Source: Nitrososphaerota archaeon
GTDB lineage: Archaea; Thermoproteota; Nitrososphaeria_A; Caldarchaeales; Calditenuaceae
Reading direction: 5' to 3'
DNA: 64,000 nucleotides
Assembly (NCBI GenBank): GCA_041641295.1
Contig: JBEPYO010000001.1
Coordinates: 896,001 to 960,000 of the forward strand
This document shows, in pieces, positions 5,205 to 32,488 of the stretch. Below the pieces are notes generated by a model. The model did not search any database and was not told the DNA's origin. It worked only from the letters and a program-made list of their open reading frames with translations. Numbering within the stretch: position 1 is the stretch's first letter; the number at the start of each line of letters is the position of its first letter. Made by a program: the position numbers and the translations under genes.

Positions 5205-6086
5205 ATGTGTAGGATGGTTGCGCTGAGTTTTCGCAGCGAGGCATCCGGGATTGCACTGGATGTTCTCGGACATCTCGTGGAGGCTTCGCGGAGCGATCCT
5301 TATCTACGGGAGATTGCCGGTGATGGCAGGCACTGTCACGGCTACGGATACGTTGCTGCTCTCAGGAGGAGGGGCCTCTGGAGAGTTGTGTATGAGAGGT
5401 TTGACGCTGAGCCCTCCCTGAGCGGCGAGGAGGCATGCGAAGCTAACCTCGAGGCGCTAGGCGACTGTGTTAAGCGGCTCTCACACATGATTGGCAACGT
5501 GGAGGAGGCGATGGTGATGGTTCACTCTAGGAGGACGCGGGGCGAGCCACGTGGAGTGCCGGCAGCACACCCCTTCAGAGAGGAGCTAATAATAACGGCT
5601 GAGGGAGGCCCCGAACTAGCCGAGCTCTACCTCTCACACAACGGAGGCGTCAAGAAGGAAGTTCTGGCAGCACACCTAGGCATCGAAAACTACAGGCTCT
5701 ACACAGACTCACACCTCTATCTCAAATACTTGGCAAAACACCTCGAGGGCGCCAGATACGAGGAGACACCTCAACTAATCGCCCGGATAGTCTCAGAGTC
5801 CAAACCACTCACAAAATCCGCACTAGACCTCTGCATACTACTATACTCGCCAACCAAAGGCCCCATGCTTGCCGCAGCATCATACGTTGCAGAGAAGAAT
5901 GACGAAAAACGCTGGCGATACTACGAGCCCGTACTCATAGAGTCCAAGGGCATCACAGGATATGTCTCAAGCACAGTAAGAGACCTAATGAGAGACAGAG
6001 AGCCCGCGACGAGGTTCATGGATGGCAGAGACGGCTTCGTCGCCGTCCTGAACCCAAACATGTTGCAGATAATAGATTTGCAGTAG
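5205..6086 (+). CDS. Class II glutamine amidotransferase-like Ntn hydrolase (YafJ/EgtC-like)
   Basis: N-terminal MCRM (nucleophilic Cys2), H.HGYG, HSRR, HPF, HNG and TDS motifs. Confidence 0.8.
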   Translation: MCRMVALSFRSEASGIALDVLGHLVEASRSDPYLREIAGDGRHCHGYGYVAALRRRGLWRVVYERFDAEPSLSGEEACEANLEALGDCVKRLSHMIGNVEEAMVMVHSRRTRGEPRGVPAAHPFREELIITAEGGPELAELYLSHNGGVKKEVLAAHLGIENYRLYTDSHLYLKYLAKHLEGARYEETPQLIARIVSESKPLTKSALDLCILLYSPTKGPMLAAASYVAEKNDEKRWRYYEPVLIESKGITGYVSSTVRDLMRDREPATRFMDGRDGFVAVLNPNMLQIIDLQ

Positions 6087-7284: not shown

Positions 7285-7357
7285 TGGGGCCGGCCGGATT
7301 CGAACCGGCGACCTCCGCCGTGTAAGGGCGGCGTCATGGCCGCTAGACCACGGCCCC
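7285..7357 (-). tRNA. tRNA-Val (anticodon TAC), intron-less, CCA not encoded
   Basis: Reverse complement GGGGCCGTGGTCTAGCGGCCATGACGCCGCCCTTACACGGCGGAGGTCGCCGGTTCGAATCCGGCCGGCCCCA; anticodon arm CCGCC-CT-TAC-AC-GGCGG. Confidence 0.97.
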
Positions 7358-7383: not shown

Positions 7384-7944
7384 TTAATTAATCTCTTCTC
7401 GAGGGTCTTCCTTCTTTCTCAGTTTTCCGAGCCTGCTTGGCTTTATGGTGATTTTTGCGTCTGGGTAGATTATGGTTAGTTCCTTTCCTTGGTGTATCCG
7501 GTCTAGGGCTATTGCGAGGGCGGCTATCTCGCTGTGTGGCTGGTTAGTGACTGCGACGTTGATGTCTGCGAGCTCGTAGACCTCGATGGGCACCTTGGAG
7601 GAGCCGACAACCAGTACGATGCCCCGAGTGGCGTAGGCCTCTCGAAGCTCCTCTTCCACATCCTGGATGCCGATTCCGTACATTGTGAGGTGGGCTATGT
7701 ATTCGCCCTGAGCCTTCCTCTCTGCTAGGAATTTTCTCCAGTCTGGTGTGTAGCTGGCCTTGAAGCCTCCTCCCCACCTCTCGACGACCTTGGATATGCT
7801 CTCTAGGAGTGCGGGGTCATGTTCTCCGGCGAATACTACCTCGTCAGCCCCCAGTGCCCTTGCTGTGAGGGCGACATGGCTCGAGACCCTCTGGTCCCTC
7901 ACAATTCTATGACCCAGCCTTAGGACTGTTATCCTCCGGGCCAA
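7384..7944 (-). CDS. trm56: tRNA (cytidine56-2'-O)-methyltransferase aTrm56 (SPOUT)
   Basis: VLRLGHR..RD.RVSSHVALTARALGA, HLTMYG, VVGSSKVP and NQPHSEIAALA. Confidence 0.95.
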   Translation of the reverse strand: MARRITVLRLGHRIVRDQRVSSHVALTARALGADEVVFAGEHDPALLESISKVVERWGGGFKASYTPDWRKFLAERKAQGEYIAHLTMYGIGIQDVEEELREAYATRGIVLVVGSSKVPIEVYELADINVAVTNQPHSEIAALAIALDRIHQGKELTIIYPDAKITIKPSRLGKLRKKEDPREEIN

Positions 7945-7948
7945 CCCG

Positions 7949-8455
7949 TCACTCTAGGAGCTTGTTTATCTCTGCCAGCGTATCGTCGACTGCTTTGAGG
8001 AGTTTGGAGTGGTCGTAGACCATTAATTTGCCTCCGCAGCTTGGGCATTTGAAGAATTTGTCGAGGGCCTCGTCGAAGGTGTATTTTCTGCATCCTTCGC
8101 TTCCGCACCAGTAGAGCTGGTTGGACTCGTAGTGTTTCTTCAGAATCTGGAGCCTCTCTGCAATCCTCTTTAACTGTGTTTTTACAACCCCTTGGACCTG
8201 CTCCTGCTGAAGCCTCCAGCGGAAGACCCTCTTGTTCAACTCCTTGTCAACTACTATGTCGTAGGCGACGAGTGAGAACTCGCTGAGCTGGTGTAGGAGC
8301 TTTCTAACCCTCTTCACGTCCATCTGCAGCGCTGCTGCAAGCTCATCCTCCCTCATCCCAGGCTTCGCCAAGAGTAGTTTGGCTAGCTCCTCCGCCTCCA
8401 CACCACCTATAAGCCTGAAGACTGATAACAGCCCCTCCGTATCGATGTAAAACAT
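7949..8455 (-). CDS. tfe: Transcription factor E (TFIIE-alpha homologue)
   Basis: wHTH (EDELA...VRKLLHQL) followed by a Zn ribbon (C...C..YTFDEA...FKCPSCGGKL). Lies next to trm56, a common archaeal linkage. Confidence 0.9.
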   Translation of the reverse strand: MFYIDTEGLLSVFRLIGGVEAEELAKLLLAKPGMREDELAAALQMDVKRVRKLLHQLSEFSLVAYDIVVDKELNKRVFRWRLQQEQVQGVVKTQLKRIAERLQILKKHYESNQLYWCGSEGCRKYTFDEALDKFFKCPSCGGKLMVYDHSKLLKAVDDTLAEINKLLE

Positions 8456-8539
8456 TCGATGCCTCCTGTATACAGAAGGCGACGGCCTGAATTATATCTA
8501 TCTCTGACAACCTAATCAAGGTTAGGTGTTGTAGGGGAG

Positions 8540-9478
8540 TTGGCTGGTATATTGGCGGCGGAGGCGAGGAGTGTGCGATACTCTGTGGGCGGGGCGGAGA
8601 TTCTCGTCGATGTAAGCCTAATGGTGTTTAAGGGTGAGGTTACGGCGCTTCTCGGGGGCTCGGAGGGTGAGGCGCTGCTGGGCCTATGGGCTGGGATTTG
8701 GCAGCCTGTAGGCGGAGGTGTCATGGCTCTGGGCCTCGACCCGTACCGAGCGGTGGGAGAAGTTGCCCGGCGGATAGGCTATCTGCCCCCCGAGCCTTGG
8801 CTGCCGCCGGAGCTGAAGCCTGAGGTAGTAGCTGGGCTCGTTGGAAGGGGTCGTGGATTGGTTCCCCGCGAGGCTGTGGAGCGTCTGAGGAATCTTCTCA
8901 AGCGTCTGGGGAAGGAGGGTGTGATGGGGCGTAGGATTGGGCGGCTCACTGCAGAGGAGAGGCAGGCCGTGGCGGTGGCCCTAACTATGCTCCACGACCC
9001 TGAACTACTGCTCCTCTCAAACCCGTTGAGGATGCTGGGGCCCCTTGCGAGGCTTGAACTCGCATCACTTTTGAGGGAGTATGTAGAGCCGGGGCGGGCT
9101 GCTGTCTTGACTGTGGATTCTGTGGAGGAGGCTGGCTTCGCGGATAGGCTTGTTGTCTTCCGGGAGGGGAGGATAGCTGCTGCCGGGCCTCTTGACGAGC
9201 TCTCCAAGACGATAGGCGCTGAGAACTACCTGGTTATCCAAGCCATAAACACTCAGCGGGCCGTTGACTATCTTGGGAAGATGCCTCAGGTTAAGAGGTT
9301 CTCCGTCGCTAGGGACGGCTCGATAAAGGTGTGGCTGCGAGAGTTTGAATCCGACCTGCCCCTGGTACTAGACCTCCTGCTTTCACTAGGGCTGGGCGTG
9401 AAGCTAGTTGATGTGAGGAGGGTTGAGTATCACGTTGCCCTCCTCAACTATCTCCGGAGGGGGGCTGGAGGTAGGTGA
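8540..9478 (+). CDS. ABC-2-type ATP-binding domain protein with degenerate catalytic motifs (probable pseudo-ATPase)
   Basis: Overall NBD layout (DVSLMV..GEV.ALLG, RIGYLP, HDPELLLL, ADRLVVF.EGRIAA.G), but Walker A, Q-loop, signature, Walker B, D-loop and H-loop are all substituted. Confidence 0.8.
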   Translation: MAGILAAEARSVRYSVGGAEILVDVSLMVFKGEVTALLGGSEGEALLGLWAGIWQPVGGGVMALGLDPYRAVGEVARRIGYLPPEPWLPPELKPEVVAGLVGRGRGLVPREAVERLRNLLKRLGKEGVMGRRIGRLTAEERQAVAVALTMLHDPELLLLSNPLRMLGPLARLELASLLREYVEPGRAAVLTVDSVEEAGFADRLVVFREGRIAAAGPLDELSKTIGAENYLVIQAINTQRAVDYLGKMPQVKRFSVARDGSIKVWLREFESDLPLVLDLLLSLGLGVKLVDVRRVEYHVALLNYLRRGAGGR

Positions 9479-10161
9479 GCCGGCATCTATTATTAGAGCT
9501 TAGACTTCTCCTCGCCTCACCACTCAGAATATCTGTGCCCCTAATCGCCCCGCTGGCACCGCTCCTACTCAGATATGCGGGGCTGCTGGGCCTAGACCTT
9601 GTCGAGCCCCTATTCCTCCTGATGTACCAGTTTCTGGCGATGGCTTATCTTCCATGGATGTTGGGGCTGCTCAGGGGAGGTTGGAGGCTGGTCTGGCTGC
9701 TGGGGCCGCCGGGCTCCGCCTTATCCCTCACCCCTTCATACTTGGGGTTCTTCGCACTGACATCAGCCCTGCCGCTGGCGCCCTACAGGCTCCTACACCA
9801 TCTACCCGCCTCCACACCGTTTGATAGCCTTGCAGCATCGCTAACCATCTTCACACTATCAGTAGGAATGCTTCACCAGTCCCTCGCAGCACTGCTCCTC
9901 TCTAGGTCGCGAGACATGACAATTGGATGGGCGGCCGTTCTCACATACCAGTCCCTACTCATAGTCCTCGCCGCATCCCTACTCTCCCAGGGCTGGTCTG
10001 ACGCCTACGCCGCCGCGGCGTTCCTCTTCCCAGTCCTCCTAGCCGTGAAGCCCCAAGCCTCCTTAGAGATACTCCTCATAGCCGCGGGCCTCTGCCTAAT
10101 CTTCTCAATAATCTTCACGTACTTGACTGTTCGCGGAGCTGTGAGGCCGGCCCCGTCTTGA
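9475..10161 (+). CDS. Polytopic membrane protein, probable ABC-2-type permease partner
   Basis: Leu-rich, about 6 hydrophobic segments, GTGA overlap with the upstream NBD gene. Confidence 0.65.
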   Translation: MSRHLLLELRLLLASPLRISVPLIAPLAPLLLRYAGLLGLDLVEPLFLLMYQFLAMAYLPWMLGLLRGGWRLVWLLGPPGSALSLTPSYLGFFALTSALPLAPYRLLHHLPASTPFDSLAASLTIFTLSVGMLHQSLAALLLSRSRDMTIGWAAVLTYQSLLIVLAASLLSQGWSDAYAAAAFLFPVLLAVKPQASLEILLIAAGLCLIFSIIFTYLTVRGAVRPAPS

Positions 10162-10186: not shown

Positions 10187-11095
10187 TTGTTTGCGAGGTA
10201 TAGCGGGTTGGCGATACTCGTCGACCGCAATACGCGGGTCTTGGTTCAGGGGATAACTGGGAGGCAGGGGAGCTTCCACACGGCCGAGATGCTGAAGTAC
10301 GGGACGAGAGTTGTTGCCGGTGTTACGCCCGGTAGAGGCGGGTCTGAGGTGCATGGTGTCCCGGTCTATGACTCGGTGGAAGATGCTGTTAGGGCTCATC
10401 CGGAGATAGACGCGTCCATCATTTTTGTCCCAGCGGCGGCTGCTGTAGATGCGTGCTATGAGGCCATAGAGGCTGGGATACGTCTGATCGTACTGATTAC
10501 GGAGGGGATACCGACCCACTGGACAATGCAGCTTGTCAGATACGCCTCTCTGAGGGGTGTTACGATAATTGGGCCCAACACGCCGGGAGTAATCACACCG
10601 GGGGAGTGTAAGCTGGGAATAATGCCCGGGAGCGTCTTCACGCGCGGCCCAGTCGGGATAGTATCGAGGAGTGGGACCCTAACCTACGAGATAGCCCAGA
10701 ACCTCACTGAGAGGGGGATAGGCCAGAGCACGTGCGTTGGGATAGGTGGAGACGCAGTCGTGGGGACAGGCTTCATAGAGATACTCGACTTGATGGGCAG
10801 GGACCCCCAGACCAAGTGCGTGGTCTTGGTTGGCGAGATAGGTGGGGACGCCGAGGAGAGGGTTGCAGAATACATAGTGAGGGAGAATTATCCTAAGCCG
10901 CTGGTGGCATATGTCGCTGGTAGGACTGCTCCGCCGGGTAAGAGGATGGGGCACGCAGGGGCGATAATCTCGCTGGGCATGGGTGATGCCTTGACCAAGA
11001 TGAAGAGGCTGAGGGAGGCGGGTGCGAGGGTTGCCGAGACGCCGGGCGAGGTTGCAAACCTAGTAGAAGAGGCTCTGAGAACCCCTAAGAGATAG
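10187..11095 (+). CDS. sucD: Succinyl-CoA synthetase alpha subunit
   Basis: VLVQGITG, GVTPG, ITEGIP, IGPNTPG, SRSGTLTYE, GIGGD, GEIGG and RMGHAGA (phospho-His). Confidence 0.95.
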   Translation: MFARYSGLAILVDRNTRVLVQGITGRQGSFHTAEMLKYGTRVVAGVTPGRGGSEVHGVPVYDSVEDAVRAHPEIDASIIFVPAAAAVDACYEAIEAGIRLIVLITEGIPTHWTMQLVRYASLRGVTIIGPNTPGVITPGECKLGIMPGSVFTRGPVGIVSRSGTLTYEIAQNLTERGIGQSTCVGIGGDAVVGTGFIEILDLMGRDPQTKCVVLVGEIGGDAEERVAEYIVRENYPKPLVAYVAGRTAPPGKRMGHAGAIISLGMGDALTKMKRLREAGARVAETPGEVANLVEEALRTPKR

Positions 11096-29993: not shown

Positions 29994-30719
29994 TCATCTG
30001 CCGATGGTTAGCGCTAGGGATGTAGTTCTAGGCTCGTCTGAAACCTTTTCCGCCACCTTTATCCATATCTCGCCGCTTAAAGTGTTAACCCTCACTTCAA
30101 CCTCGCCCCTCGAGATGAGGTAGCTCAGAAGATATGCCCTATTCTTCCTATCCCCCCTCATGTTGACGAAGTCCCAATACCTCACCCAGCCGCCGATCGA
30201 TGAGAGCTCGGCTAAAAGCTCCCCGAGCTCGCGGCTTATCTGGCTCTCAATAGCCTCGTAGGCGCTGGGACTCCCCACAGCGAGCTGTACAGCCTCTAGA
30301 CCGGCTGAGCCCCTGGTCGGCCTTGAGAGGAAGTGCTGATACCCCCTCAATAGCAGGTCTATCGAGATCTGCTCAAGCCTAACTATCGGCCTCCAAGCCT
30401 GGAGAAGGGCTGCAACGAGGGACTTGGGGTCCGCACCCACTATCTTGGAGTAGATCATGCCCGCGTCGATGAAGAGCGAGGAGGCCCTCTCCCTAATCCA
30501 CCTCTGCTGGAGCCCCAGCACCACCGAGACCCTGTAGAGCGTCTCAGCGTCGAGGCTAATCGTCTCAACATCCCTCTCCCTCTCAATTATCTCGCGGAGC
30601 CTCGAGAGGAGTGAGGAGACATCGACGCTGAAGGGGTCAAGCCTCCTCGACTCGATCTCGCCGAGGATAGAGATCATCCGGAGGAGTTCCTCCCTTGGGA
30701 TCCTGACTACCTTGCTCAT
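29994..30719 (-). CDS. Kleisin (ScpA/Nse4-like)
   Basis: N-terminal LDPFSVDV (compare archaeal ScpA IDPWDIDI) and C-terminal wHTH AYLLSYLISRGEVEV...GEIWI. ATGA overlap with the SMC gene. Confidence 0.72.
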   Translation of the reverse strand: MSKVVRIPREELLRMISILGEIESRRLDPFSVDVSSLLSRLREIIERERDVETISLDAETLYRVSVVLGLQQRWIRERASSLFIDAGMIYSKIVGADPKSLVAALLQAWRPIVRLEQISIDLLLRGYQHFLSRPTRGSAGLEAVQLAVGSPSAYEAIESQISRELGELLAELSSIGGWVRYWDFVNMRGDRKNRAYLLSYLISRGEVEVRVNTLSGEIWIKVAEKVSDEPRTTSLALTIGR

Positions 30720-32488
30720 CCAACCTCCACCGAGCTGGTAACGAAGGAGGACCCGGCCACGTTCTGGACGATTATGAGGTTGAAGCCGTCTGTGATTGGT
30801 AGCCTCCCGGGTGTGATGAATAGGAACTGGGTTGAGGGGTAGGAGCGGGCGATCTCGACAAGCATTTTGGTAACCATCTCCCTGTTCAGGGGGTCTAGGT
30901 GTACGTCGAACTCGTCTACGGCTCTTATGGGAGACTTGACGTAGCTCTGGAGGGCTAGGAGGAATGCGATGGTTGCCACAACCCTCTCGCCACCGCTGTG
31001 CGTGTGTGCGTCAACTATCATCGGCTCCATCCCCCTGAACCCGGCCATCAGCTCCAAGCTAGCAGTGACAGGGTCGTCGAGGCCCCTGATCCTGATATAC
31101 CCTCTCCCGCCTACCGCCTCCAAGAGCCTCTGATAAACCGGGTTAATATCATCGATAATCTCCTTAAGCTTGTCCCTCCAGATCTGCCTCCTCTTCTCAA
31201 CTTCTTCAATCGCCTTCTTCACGTTCTCCTCAACTTGTCTAGCCTTCAGCTCAACCTCCCTGAACCTTGAGTCTGCTAGGAAATACATGGTCTCTGCGTC
31301 GGGGATTACTTTGCCGAGGGAGGCAATCTCGAGGGTGGTTAGCTTCAGGTCCTCAAGCACCGCTGAGGGCTCCCTCTCGGTCGCGACCTCCTCTCCCTTC
31401 TCGGAGGCTGCCGCCCTCCTCTCCTCAAACTCCCTCAAGAGGCTGTTGATCTCCGACTGGGTCTCAGAGACCTCCCTCTCTAGGCTCGAGACCCTATACC
31501 GCCTCACACCCTCCTCAACAGCGGCCTTCACCAAGAGGTCGACGGCTTCCAAGACCTCTTCTGGACGCCCGGAGGCGTAAAGGCTCTCCCGAATCCTCTC
31601 CCTTAAGGAGGCCGCCTCGGCACCGTAGGCTGCAGCCTCCTCCTCAAGCCTCGCCTTCTCCTTCAACATCCTCTCAAGGACCAGCCGCCTCCTCTCGAGG
31701 CTCCTCCCAACCTGGTGGACTAGGCTCCACGCATACTCTAGCTCTAGGCTCTTCCTCCTCTCCTCGAGCTCCTTTAGGTGTTGGAGCTTCTGGAGCTCCT
31801 TCCGCCAGTACTCTACGGCCTCTTCTGCCTCTGAGAGGAGACGCTTGACGGACGCTTCCTCTGATCTGAGGCTGTTTAGCCTGCTCTCGGCCTCGAGCAG
31901 TCTCTCCCTGAGATGTGAAAGTCCTACTGCGTCCTCCATCGCCCTGAGCTTCTCGACGTTATCCCTGGAGGCGAAGTTCTCTATCATGTTCTGGTGCATT
32001 ATTATGAGGGCGTTGTTGGGGTTGATTCCAAGCCTCCTTAAGAGCTCCTCAAGCTCGGCCTTGGGCGTGAACCTGTTGTTGACATAGTGCCAGTATTCGC
32101 CGCTCTTCTTGATGTAGCGGGTGACAGTTATCTCGTCCGACTTGATGGAGGAGACTGGCCGCTCCCCATCTACTGGAGAATTGTCTAGGACTACTGTGAG
32201 CCTTGCGGCCTCTTTCCCCCTCCTTATAAGGTCGCTCAGCCTCTGCCCCCTCTCAGTATAGGTCTGGCCCAGCGCTACAGAGAGGCCGAGCAGGATTGAG
32301 GACTTGCCCGAGCCGTTGGGCCCGGTGATGACGTTAAGCCCGGGCTCAAGCCTTATTCGGGAATACTCGTGGGACATGAAGTTCTCGAGTATGACTTCGC
32401 GTATGTGAGTTGGTCTCGCCTCGACCCCCACCTGCCCCAACCGAGCCCTAGCCAACCTCTCCAACCCTTCAGAGAAGGCCAGCCACAA
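30716..32488 (-). CDS. Short SMC-family ATPase, SMC5/6-like or coalescin-like, with no recognisable hinge or zinc hook
   Basis: LENFMSH, Walker A GPNGSGKSS, Q-loop MHQN, coiled coil, signature HSGGER, Walker B/D-loop PIRAVDEFDVHLDP.NR and QFLFITP. Confidence 0.9.
   Translation of the reverse strand: MWLAFSEGLERLARARLGQVGVEARPTHIREVILENFMSHEYSRIRLEPGLNVITGPNGSGKSSILLGLSVALGQTYTERGQRLSDLIRRGKEAARLTVVLDNSPVDGERPVSSIKSDEITVTRYIKKSGEYWHYVNNRFTPKAELEELLRRLGINPNNALIIMHQNMIENFASRDNVEKLRAMEDAVGLSHLRERLLEAESRLNSLRSEEASVKRLLSEAEEAVEYWRKELQKLQHLKELEERRKSLELEYAWSLVHQVGRSLERRRLVLERMLKEKARLEEEAAAYGAEAASLRERIRESLYASGRPEEVLEAVDLLVKAAVEEGVRRYRVSSLEREVSETQSEINSLLREFEERRAAASEKGEEVATEREPSAVLEDLKLTTLEIASLGKVIPDAETMYFLADSRFREVELKARQVEENVKKAIEEVEKRRQIWRDKLKEIIDDINPVYQRLLEAVGGRGYIRIRGLDDPVTASLELMAGFRGMEPMIVDAHTHSGGERVVATIAFLLALQSYVKSPIRAVDEFDVHLDPLNREMVTKMLVEIARSYPSTQFLFITPGRLPITDGFNLIIVQNVAGSSFVTSSVEVG

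Follow-up and report, generated by a model that had tools for sequence, protein, structure and literature searches.

Two overlapping genes on the forward strand of the window analysed here, a 64-kb stretch (G000:C1:896001-960000) of a 1.56-Mb genome of the archaeal family Calditenuaceae, encode a 312-residue homologue of the nucleotide-binding domains (NBDs) found in transporters of the ATP-binding cassette (ABC) class and a 228-residue membrane protein. Our comparative analysis indicates that the first of these proteins, referred to below as the pseudo-NBD, belongs to a conserved and selected pseudo-ATPase family: the genes are real, they evolve under purifying selection, the ATP-site motifs have been lost across the whole family, and the operon with the membrane gene is coupled. 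The family Calditenuaceae was assigned by the names on database matches, and g1 to g4 denote genera within it, the present genome belonging to g1. The features of the locus are collected in Table 1, where ORF stands for open reading frame and TM for transmembrane.

Table 1. Features of the pseudo-NBD locus, in positions of the window.
Feature	Position	Strand	Description
tRNA-Val	7285-7357	-	upstream of the pseudo-NBD gene, divergent
aTrm56 (trm56) gene	7384-7944	-	upstream of the pseudo-NBD gene, divergent
TFIIE_alpha (TFE, tfe) gene	7949-8455	-	upstream of the pseudo-NBD gene, divergent
TATA-box-like sequence	8490..8500	.	AATTATATCTA; inside the 84-bp gap between tfe and the pseudo-NBD gene
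Pseudo-NBD gene	8540..9478	+	open ORF, 312 residues, TTG start; ABC NBD homologue without ATP-site motifs
Walker A/P-loop remnant	8645..8677	+	residues 36-46, ALLGGSEGEAL; acidic in place of Lys/Thr of GxxGxGK[ST]
Former Q-loop stretch	8780..8815	+	residues 81-92, YLPPEPWLPPEL, includes YLPPEPWLPP; set against the coupling helix in the complex model
C-terminal beta-alpha-beta-beta-alpha-beta-alpha domain	9215..9475	+	residues 226-312; from secondary structure of the model and full-length structural matches
GGAGG and GTGA stop/start overlap	9466..9478	+	GGAGG at 9466-9470; four bases on, GTGA at 9475-9478
Membrane partner gene	9475..10161	+	open ORF, 228 residues, GTG start; orphan by sequence, modelled as a type V (ABC-2) exporter TM fold
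Predicted coupling helix	9664..9714	+	membrane-protein residues 64-80, invariant G68-G69-W70 (LRGGWR); helix 69-76 in the model
Succinyl-CoA-ligase-alpha-like gene	10187-11095	+	CoA_binding and Ligase_CoA domains; 26 bases 3' of the membrane gene

Homology of the 312-residue protein to ABC NBDs is not in doubt. It scores 30.1 bits against PF00005 (ABC_tran), above the gathering cut-off of 25, with residues 24-162 lying on profile positions 3-135 of 137, and its predicted structure matches many solved NBDs with Z-scores of 25-27.5. Among the 61 PF00005 matches found genome-wide it is the weakest full-length one (32.2 bits, the next full-length match scoring 53.5 and the best 131.5), and its best NCBIfam match, TIGR01188 drrA, reaches 72 bits against a cut-off of 312. 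Close matches in the databases are annotated as 'ABC transporter ATP-binding protein NatA' or 'ABC-2 type transport system ATP-binding protein', and phmmer gives as its closest paralogue in the same genome a tandem ECF-type ATPase of 566 residues (E 5.9e-29), either half of which is 26-29% identical to it. An identity as a defence system was rejected: in PADLOC the NBD reached no more than 15.6 bits against mad3 (E 0.0022), and the membrane protein had no match.

The ATP-site motifs were read from a HMMER alignment to ABCA7 NBD1 and a MAFFT alignment with three canonical ABC-2 NBDs, and each of the substitutions by which the initial annotation had declared six motifs erased was seen there. Walker A reads LLGGSEGEALL against LGHNGAGKTT, two to three residues shorter and devoid of Lys/Thr; the Q-loop reads YLPPEP against CPQYN, with Gln replaced by Pro; the signature is LTAEER in place of LSGGMQ; in Walker B, LLLLSNP against ILDEP, the D-E pair has become S-N; the D-loop is MLGP (RMLGP) against GVDP; and the H-loop, LTVDS against STHH, carries Asp for His. 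At the P-loop site the AlphaFold2 (AF2) model has two residues only (39-40) between strand 34-38 and helix 41-51. Of the 34 NBD-like ORFs in this genome, 32 were positive when searched for Walker A by regular expression, and GPNAAGKT stands in the 33rd. Outside the window (G000:C1:638519-639733, minus strand) lies an ABC NBD of 404 residues whose Walker A reads GPNAAGKT and whose C-terminus is extended by ~150 residues; it adjoins a 355-residue membrane ORF with nine predicted TM segments.

The pseudo-NBD is narrowly distributed, and a gap in the search scores separates it from canonical ABC proteins. A single-sequence search of 5.8 billion proteins returned ten clusters at 55-93% identity, the next matches being ordinary ABC proteins at no more than 35%, and a 15-member profile retrieved 12 clusters (90% identity) at E <= 1.5e-109, followed by canonical ABC proteins from 4.3e-34. 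Among 61 related genomes, the present one included, the gene was found in all seven other g1 genomes, all three g4 genomes and the single g3 genome (the g4 and g3 copies at 28-30% identity), in each genus at the same position, divergent from tfe-trm56. Across these 12 genomes from three genera no orthologue contains an internal stop, and relatives with intact motifs or frameshifted copies, which would have spoken for recent decay, were not seen. A single-protein query at E <= 1e-20 detected the pseudo-NBD in none of the seven g2 genomes, which are 66-91% complete. Five more matches in other families proved to be ordinary transporters, four of them showing GPNGAGKT and the fifth (L013) grouping with them in the tree. 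In the g2 loci L020 and L021, tfe-trm56 is kept and the gene divergent from tfe differs; its place is taken in genome G008 by an SMC/Rad50-like ORF whose P-loop reads GPNGAGKS and, in G011, by a 327-residue ORF which by reading of its translation resembles a 2-oxoacid:ferredoxin oxidoreductase beta subunit.

The loss of motifs runs through all three genera. In none of the 15 aligned members, which share 27-93% identity, are the Walker A Lys, the Q-loop Gln, the LSGGQ signature or the H-loop His present: Pro, Ser, Gly or Arg stands for Gln, LTAEE and its variants for LSGGQ, and Asp, Ala, Ser, Asn or Thr for His. The Walker B D-E pair is missing in 14 of the 15, the g3 member having IEEP, and the A-loop aromatic residue is Leu in the three g4 members. 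The new motif forms are kept inside g1 (PEG[ED], LLLLSNP) but are unlike between g1, g4 and g3. Pro83 and Pro89 of the former Q-loop stretch are invariant in 15/15 members, and the invariant residues of the protein concentrate at positions 245-286. A quick maximum-likelihood tree of 39 chosen rows (16 pseudo-NBDs, four of the five canonical loci, without L015, 11 NBD-like ORFs chosen among the 33 others in the same genome, and eight database proteins) placed the 16 pseudo-NBD rows on one side of a branch with a Shimodaira-Hasegawa-like approximate likelihood-ratio test (SH-aLRT) value of 99 and a stem of 0.87, which in a quick, midpoint-rooted tree is consistent with a single origin; no sister group was resolved in it because the pseudo-NBD clade stands on the midpoint-rooted long branch.

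The g3 orthologue (L012:1507-2442, plus strand; G009:C6, protein P0139) has no membrane gene after it and is followed instead by a convergent 235-residue hexapeptide-repeat-like ORF; what is left of its P-loop exceeds the g1 and g4 remnants by one residue, and it reads IEEP in Walker B and LSEGE in the signature. This copy may represent an intermediate of motif erosion or one that works without a membrane partner.

The coding sequences bear the mark of purifying selection. By Nei-Gojobori estimates among the eight g1 loci, the ratio of nonsynonymous to synonymous substitution rates (dN/dS) amounted to 0.09-0.29 in 28 pairs of the pseudo-NBD, 0.18-0.44 in 25 pairs of the membrane gene (three more being saturated) and 0.03-0.11 in the neighbouring TFE gene. 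An active ABC-2 NBD paralogue (C1:595783-596724 in the present genome), present in seven of the eight g1 genomes and carrying GPNGSGKT in all seven, served as control and gave 0.10-0.23 (21 pairs); since the values of the pseudo-NBD match those of this paralogue, selection preserves the dead domain as strictly as a live one. In eight chosen pairs, constraint inside the protein is strongest over the last 80 residues (0.04-0.14), compared with 0.12-0.29 for the NBD core, and the 39 former motif positions, at 0.08-0.26, are themselves constrained and thus fixed in their new form instead of drifting. The initial annotation had proposed a selected pseudo-ATPase rather than a decaying pseudogene and had asked whether motif loss is conserved among orthologues with dN/dS below 1; with frames free of internal stops in 12 genomes, the Walker A Lys, Q-loop Gln, LSGGQ and H-loop His in 0/15 members, ratios like those of an active paralogue and the coupling kept in g4, the proposal is supported.

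The AF2 model of the 312-residue protein (predicted local distance difference test score, pLDDT, 87.1) comprises a full ABC NBD and a C-terminal domain. It superimposes on NosF (7o0y_C) with a Z-score of 27.1 and a root-mean-square deviation (rmsd) of 3.3 over 294 aligned residues, on TM_1403 (4yer_B) with a Z-score of 27.5 and on ABCA4 with a TMq of 0.82. The frame is intact over 312 codons, and the NBD scaffold and accessory domain that had been read from the sequence are both present in the model. The C-terminal domain has its structural counterparts in the regulatory domains at the C-terminus of NosF, TM_1403 and ABCA transporters; domains of this kind are ACT-like and form dimers in proteins of the ABCA and NosF type.

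By its predicted fold, the 228-residue protein is a type V (ABC-2) membrane domain. The AF2 model (pLDDT 85.2) contains six long helices and short amphipathic ones, in agreement with the approximately six TM segments foreseen earlier, and displays the features of the fold: an amphipathic helix at the N-terminus and six TM helices, with TM2 followed by a coupling helix and TM5 by re-entrant helices. An exhaustive VIA-align comparison with 48,161 chains returned membrane domains of type V exporters for all of the best 17 matches (Z-scores 9.1-15.4), with ABCG2 at the top (Z 15.4, rmsd 3.3, 221 of 228 residues aligned) and further ABCG1 (15.2), ABCH (14.9), ABCA4 (14.0), NosY (13.9), CcmB (12.2) and Wzm (11.1); in helical bundles a Z-score under ~13 can reflect a common arrangement, and the top rows lie above that and span the whole protein. 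Next below type V came type VI LptF/G at a Z-score of ~9, with unrelated folds from ~7. Foldseek alone was weak on this model, the best match being NosY at E 0.013. No ABC2_membrane model of Pfam matched any of 14 members at E <= 1, and neither another Pfam family nor an NCBIfam family matched; a profile search of the Protein Data Bank returned no chain at E <= 10, hhalign against the canonical permease of locus L016 gave a probability of 0.4%, and an atlas match to ABC2_membrane_5 at 0.93 on 51% of the cluster is a lead only.

Among 1.84 billion representatives the profile of the membrane family retrieved 11 proteins at E <= 0.001, six of them at E <= 1e-30; by alignment these proteins are g1-like and g4-like. 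In the genomes compared, this profile found the gene in 7/7 g1 and 3/3 g4 genomes and in none of the seven g2 genomes, the single g3 genome or 57 genomes of three other families of the order, and the membrane gene is directly coupled to the pseudo-NBD gene in 11 of the 12 genomes that have a pseudo-NBD. The invariant columns of the alignment are F47, Q52, G68, G69, W70, L162 and P186, and invariant or near-invariant residues fall in TM2 (F47, Q52, L54) and TM5 (Y158, L162, L170), the two helices which in ABCG2 line the dimer interface and the central cavity. No charged residue is found among the invariant columns, which disfavours proton coupling. In the g1 genome G003 the last ~65-70 residues of the membrane protein recur in two additional partial copies (C18:22692-22898 and C6:44507-44683; P0133 and P0135), of which P0133 (132 residues) joins the 3'-end piece to an unrelated N-terminus; they look like fragmentary duplications of the 3' end of the gene.

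Binding of the pseudo-NBD to its membrane partner through the coupling helix is supported by modelling of the complex, a check the initial annotation had called for. The model reached an interaction prediction score from aligned errors (ipSAE) of 0.81 (runs at 0.79, 0.81 and 0.81), the best of three controls scoring 0.00; of 157 solved complexes 116 attain this mark, as do 2 of 215 mismatched pairs, figures that apply only approximately here because the alignments were our own. At least 97% of contacts agree between the runs, and the pLDDT of the partner is at least 83. In the modelled interface, NBD residues 81-92, 96-104 and 145-149 face membrane-protein residues 3-15 (the N-terminal helix), 64-80 (the GGW stretch) and 224-228 (the C-terminus), with the GGW helix sitting in the usual groove of the NBD, as in a canonical interface.

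Turning to the surroundings of the pair, the GGAGG sequence followed by the GTGA overlap suggests translational coupling of the two genes, and the overlap itself had been described correctly. The TTG start of the pseudo-NBD gene is identical in 8/8 g1 loci, and the junction in g4 is a four-base overlap in L010 and L011 and a direct abutment in L009. The divergent orientation towards tfe, trm56 and tRNA-Val, also claimed beforehand, was found with all three on the minus strand. The sequence AATTATATCTA in the intervening gap is the same or almost the same in seven of the eight g1 loci, with ~35-45 bases between it and each of the two start codons. It may act as a shared or divergent archaeal TATA/promoter element. 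On the downstream side, the succinyl-CoA-ligase-alpha-like gene may be co-transcribed with the pair, and it occupies the same position in g4 (L010:3197-3862, L011:1-723); it is followed in the window by a class-V aminotransferase and a 2-hydroxyacid dehydrogenase, so that no ligase beta subunit adjoins. A 293-residue ORF at 5205-6086 of the window (plus strand) matches no Pfam family at E <= 0.001. A PF00005 search found no second ABC transporter NBD elsewhere in the window, the single other signal (16.7 bits at 32018-32332) lying inside a 590-residue SMC_N/RecF-type protein (30716-32488), which upholds the earlier statement that no active NBD is nearby; in the genome as a whole, over 100 kb separate the locus from the closest strong ABC domains.

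Taken together, we consider it probable that the pair forms an ATP-independent ABC-2-like membrane complex, acting either as a passive or ligand-gated pathway or as a scaffold or sensor. The 312-residue subunit would descend from an ABC-2 ATPase, with the fold and the regulatory-type C-terminal domain retained. With its short acidic P-loop, and with all catalytic and ATP-sandwich residues replaced, it should be unable to bind or hydrolyse ATP in the canonical manner. Because the P-loop is short and acidic and the signature and D-loop are lost, neither a homodimer nor a heterodimer would be expected to contain a consensus ATP site, and the complex would therefore be constitutive and nucleotide-independent. 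According to the model, the pseudo-NBD would still dock on its membrane partner by way of the usual groove and the invariant GGW helix, and two such pairs are probably joined by their C-terminal domains into a dimer. In the absence of nucleotide such a complex might let hydrophobic or lipid-like cargo pass by a passive or ligand-gated route, or else serve as a membrane-anchored scaffold or sensor, the strongly constrained C-terminal domain presumably being the working cytoplasmic part that holds the dimer or senses a ligand. A more specific proposal, which we put forward only tentatively, is that the NBD pseudoenzyme is clamped to the type V domain and that the membrane domain takes its state from the ACT-like C-terminal domain instead of from ATP, for example in a ligand-gated or passive scramblase of lipids or lipid-linked glycans. 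If this holds true, it would be the first case, as far as the literature searched extends, in which both ATP sites of an ABC transporter have been abolished by evolution with the NBD-membrane coupling apparatus retained.

Several observations weigh against this interpretation of the pair. Loss of ATP binding is deduced solely from the sequence, and the g3 copy retains IEEP and LSEGE. The membrane family is placed by predicted fold without a sequence-level link, and the score of the complex may reflect likeness to known structures, because ABC-2 complexes have already been solved. Furthermore, dN/dS in the modelled interface stretch (81-104 and 145-149) is 0.14-0.56 (seven pairs), no tighter than in the rest of the protein. 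In the g3 genome (G009, 88% complete) no membrane partner was detected either beside the pseudo-NBD or by the family profile (0/1), and the pseudo-NBD may for that reason have a role that does without the membrane protein. As for expression, the locus was found in five DNA runs from four studies, three of these runs being possible sources of the present DNA, and in no RNA sequencing run, which is no evidence either way.

The g3 genome also bears on the possibility that the pseudo-NBD is mainly a soluble protein whose C-terminal domain binds a small molecule or protein, the membrane protein being an optional anchor and no transport device. Retention of the g3 orthologue without a detectable partner would fit such a role, as would the tight constraint on the C-terminal domain (0.04-0.14 against 0.12-0.29 for the core) and the clustering of invariant residues at 245-286. 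The g3 case is nevertheless one genome, at 88% completeness, and the coupling of the membrane gene in 11/12 genomes, the purifying selection on the membrane protein and its invariant GGW helix, modelled in the NBD groove, argue the other way; we regard a mainly soluble function as unlikely.

Also to be weighed is a heteromeric, still ATP-powered transporter in which the dead half has as its partner an active half-transporter of the ABC-2 kind or a solitary NBD from another locus, after the manner of ABCG5/G8 or TM287/288-type pumps. To our knowledge, the one active site of the known heterodimers receives from each NBD a Walker A/B or else a signature of consensus form. In the present family both sides of the site are gone in 15/15 members, so that no consensus site would form with any partner, and the conserved locus holds one NBD gene and one membrane gene, with no second transporter NBD in the window. 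In favour of this arrangement, the genome has 61 PF00005 matches, and heterodimers with one degenerate site are well known, as the available part of PMC7756269 describes. A scan that flagged several NBD ORFs without a neighbour of at least four predicted TM segments within 2.5 kb (e.g., C1:655990-656754) was not used as evidence, its threshold having missed the membrane partner of the locus itself, and orphan NBDs are not established by so crude a scan. We judge this arrangement to be hardly probable. Out of the three roles the initial annotation suggested, that of heterodimer partner is accordingly the least likely, because with the Walker A/B side and the signature/D-loop side both gone, the protein would be unable to complete either of the composite ATP sites; scaffold and sensor are both candidate roles.

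A regulatory switch without ATPase activity, in which a non-canonical pocket senses a nucleotide or a phosphorylated ligand, appears quite improbable. The preservation of the former motif positions in new form in g1 (dN/dS 0.08-0.26) suggests a new use of the site. On the other hand, the phosphate loop is shortened by two to three residues and has Glu/Asp at the Lys/Thr positions, the A-loop aromatic residue has become Leu in the three g4 members, and the dissimilarity of the new motifs among g1, g4 and g3 is a poor fit to one conserved pocket. A decaying pseudogene or chance open frame, to which only the very low Pfam score of 30.1 bits could point, is already refuted by the frame being intact in 12 genomes, by dN/dS of 0.09-0.29 like that of the active paralogue, by the confident AF2 model, and by synteny and coupling kept across genera at ~29% identity.

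An ATP-independent ABC-2-like complex thus being the reading we retain, its reach is limited to 12 clusters at 90% identity from a few genera of one hot-spring archaeal family, most members coming from metagenome assemblies. Within this range, routine annotation gives the pseudo-NBD an ATPase function which its sequence cannot support. The paper on the Calditenuaceae, in the portion available, names five genera and treats ABC importers of branched-chain amino acids, not this pair (PMC12979851); the organism cultured in that work may belong to a genus that lacks the pair.

Comparison with known systems places the pair closest to the ABC-2/type V exporters (NosFY, TM_1403, DrrAB/NatAB-type, ABCA and ABCG), with which it shares the order of an NBD gene followed by a 6-TM membrane gene. 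The NBD and C-terminal fold is that of NosF, the membrane fold that of ABCG2 and NosY, and docking through the coupling helix is predicted alike. Unlike these exporters, the pair has no ATP-site motifs left, and its membrane protein matches none of the ABC2_membrane Pfam families and no solved chain by sequence. ABC transporters are defined by the ATP-driven dimerisation of their NBDs.

Loss of catalytic residues from a domain that is kept and selected is also known from heterodimeric exporters with a degenerate site, such as TM287/288, TAP, ABCG5/G8 and CFTR. In such exporters one composite site is lost, although ATP usually still binds to it, and one site of consensus form is preserved. In the present case, by contrast, the Walker A/B side and the signature/D-loop side have both disappeared from one and the same NBD gene, leaving a homodimer without any site, and the operon contains neither a second NBD or half-transporter gene nor the makings of a consensus composite site. 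The accessible text of PMC7756269 portrays the degenerate sites known so far as partial and paired with a consensus site, and partially degenerate sites are likewise reported for RbsA and NupO in B. subtilis in the section at hand of PMC11466899, as well as for ABCB5-beta in the available material. Further such sites in the literature searched belong to type I exporters. In the literature searched, whose coverage leaves out most subscription journals, no stand-alone, fully motif-less NBD conserved with a membrane partner was found.

A membrane domain of ABC type that works without ATP has its precedent in the peptide transporters SbmA/BacA (SLiPT). SbmA has a fold that is type IV-like, not type V, and has shed the NBD entirely, whereas here an NBD-fold subunit is retained as a pseudoenzyme. 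In the part of PMC13316013 available, these proteins are presented as proton-driven secondary transporters. The pair described here offers a natural experiment on what NBDs contribute beyond ATP hydrolysis, namely assembly, gating and regulation via the C-terminal domain. Hence, set beside these systems, it is an ABC-2 module turned pseudoenzyme complex, which resembles and descends from the ABC-2/type V exporters and yet lacks every catalytic sequence motif of the ABC ATPases.

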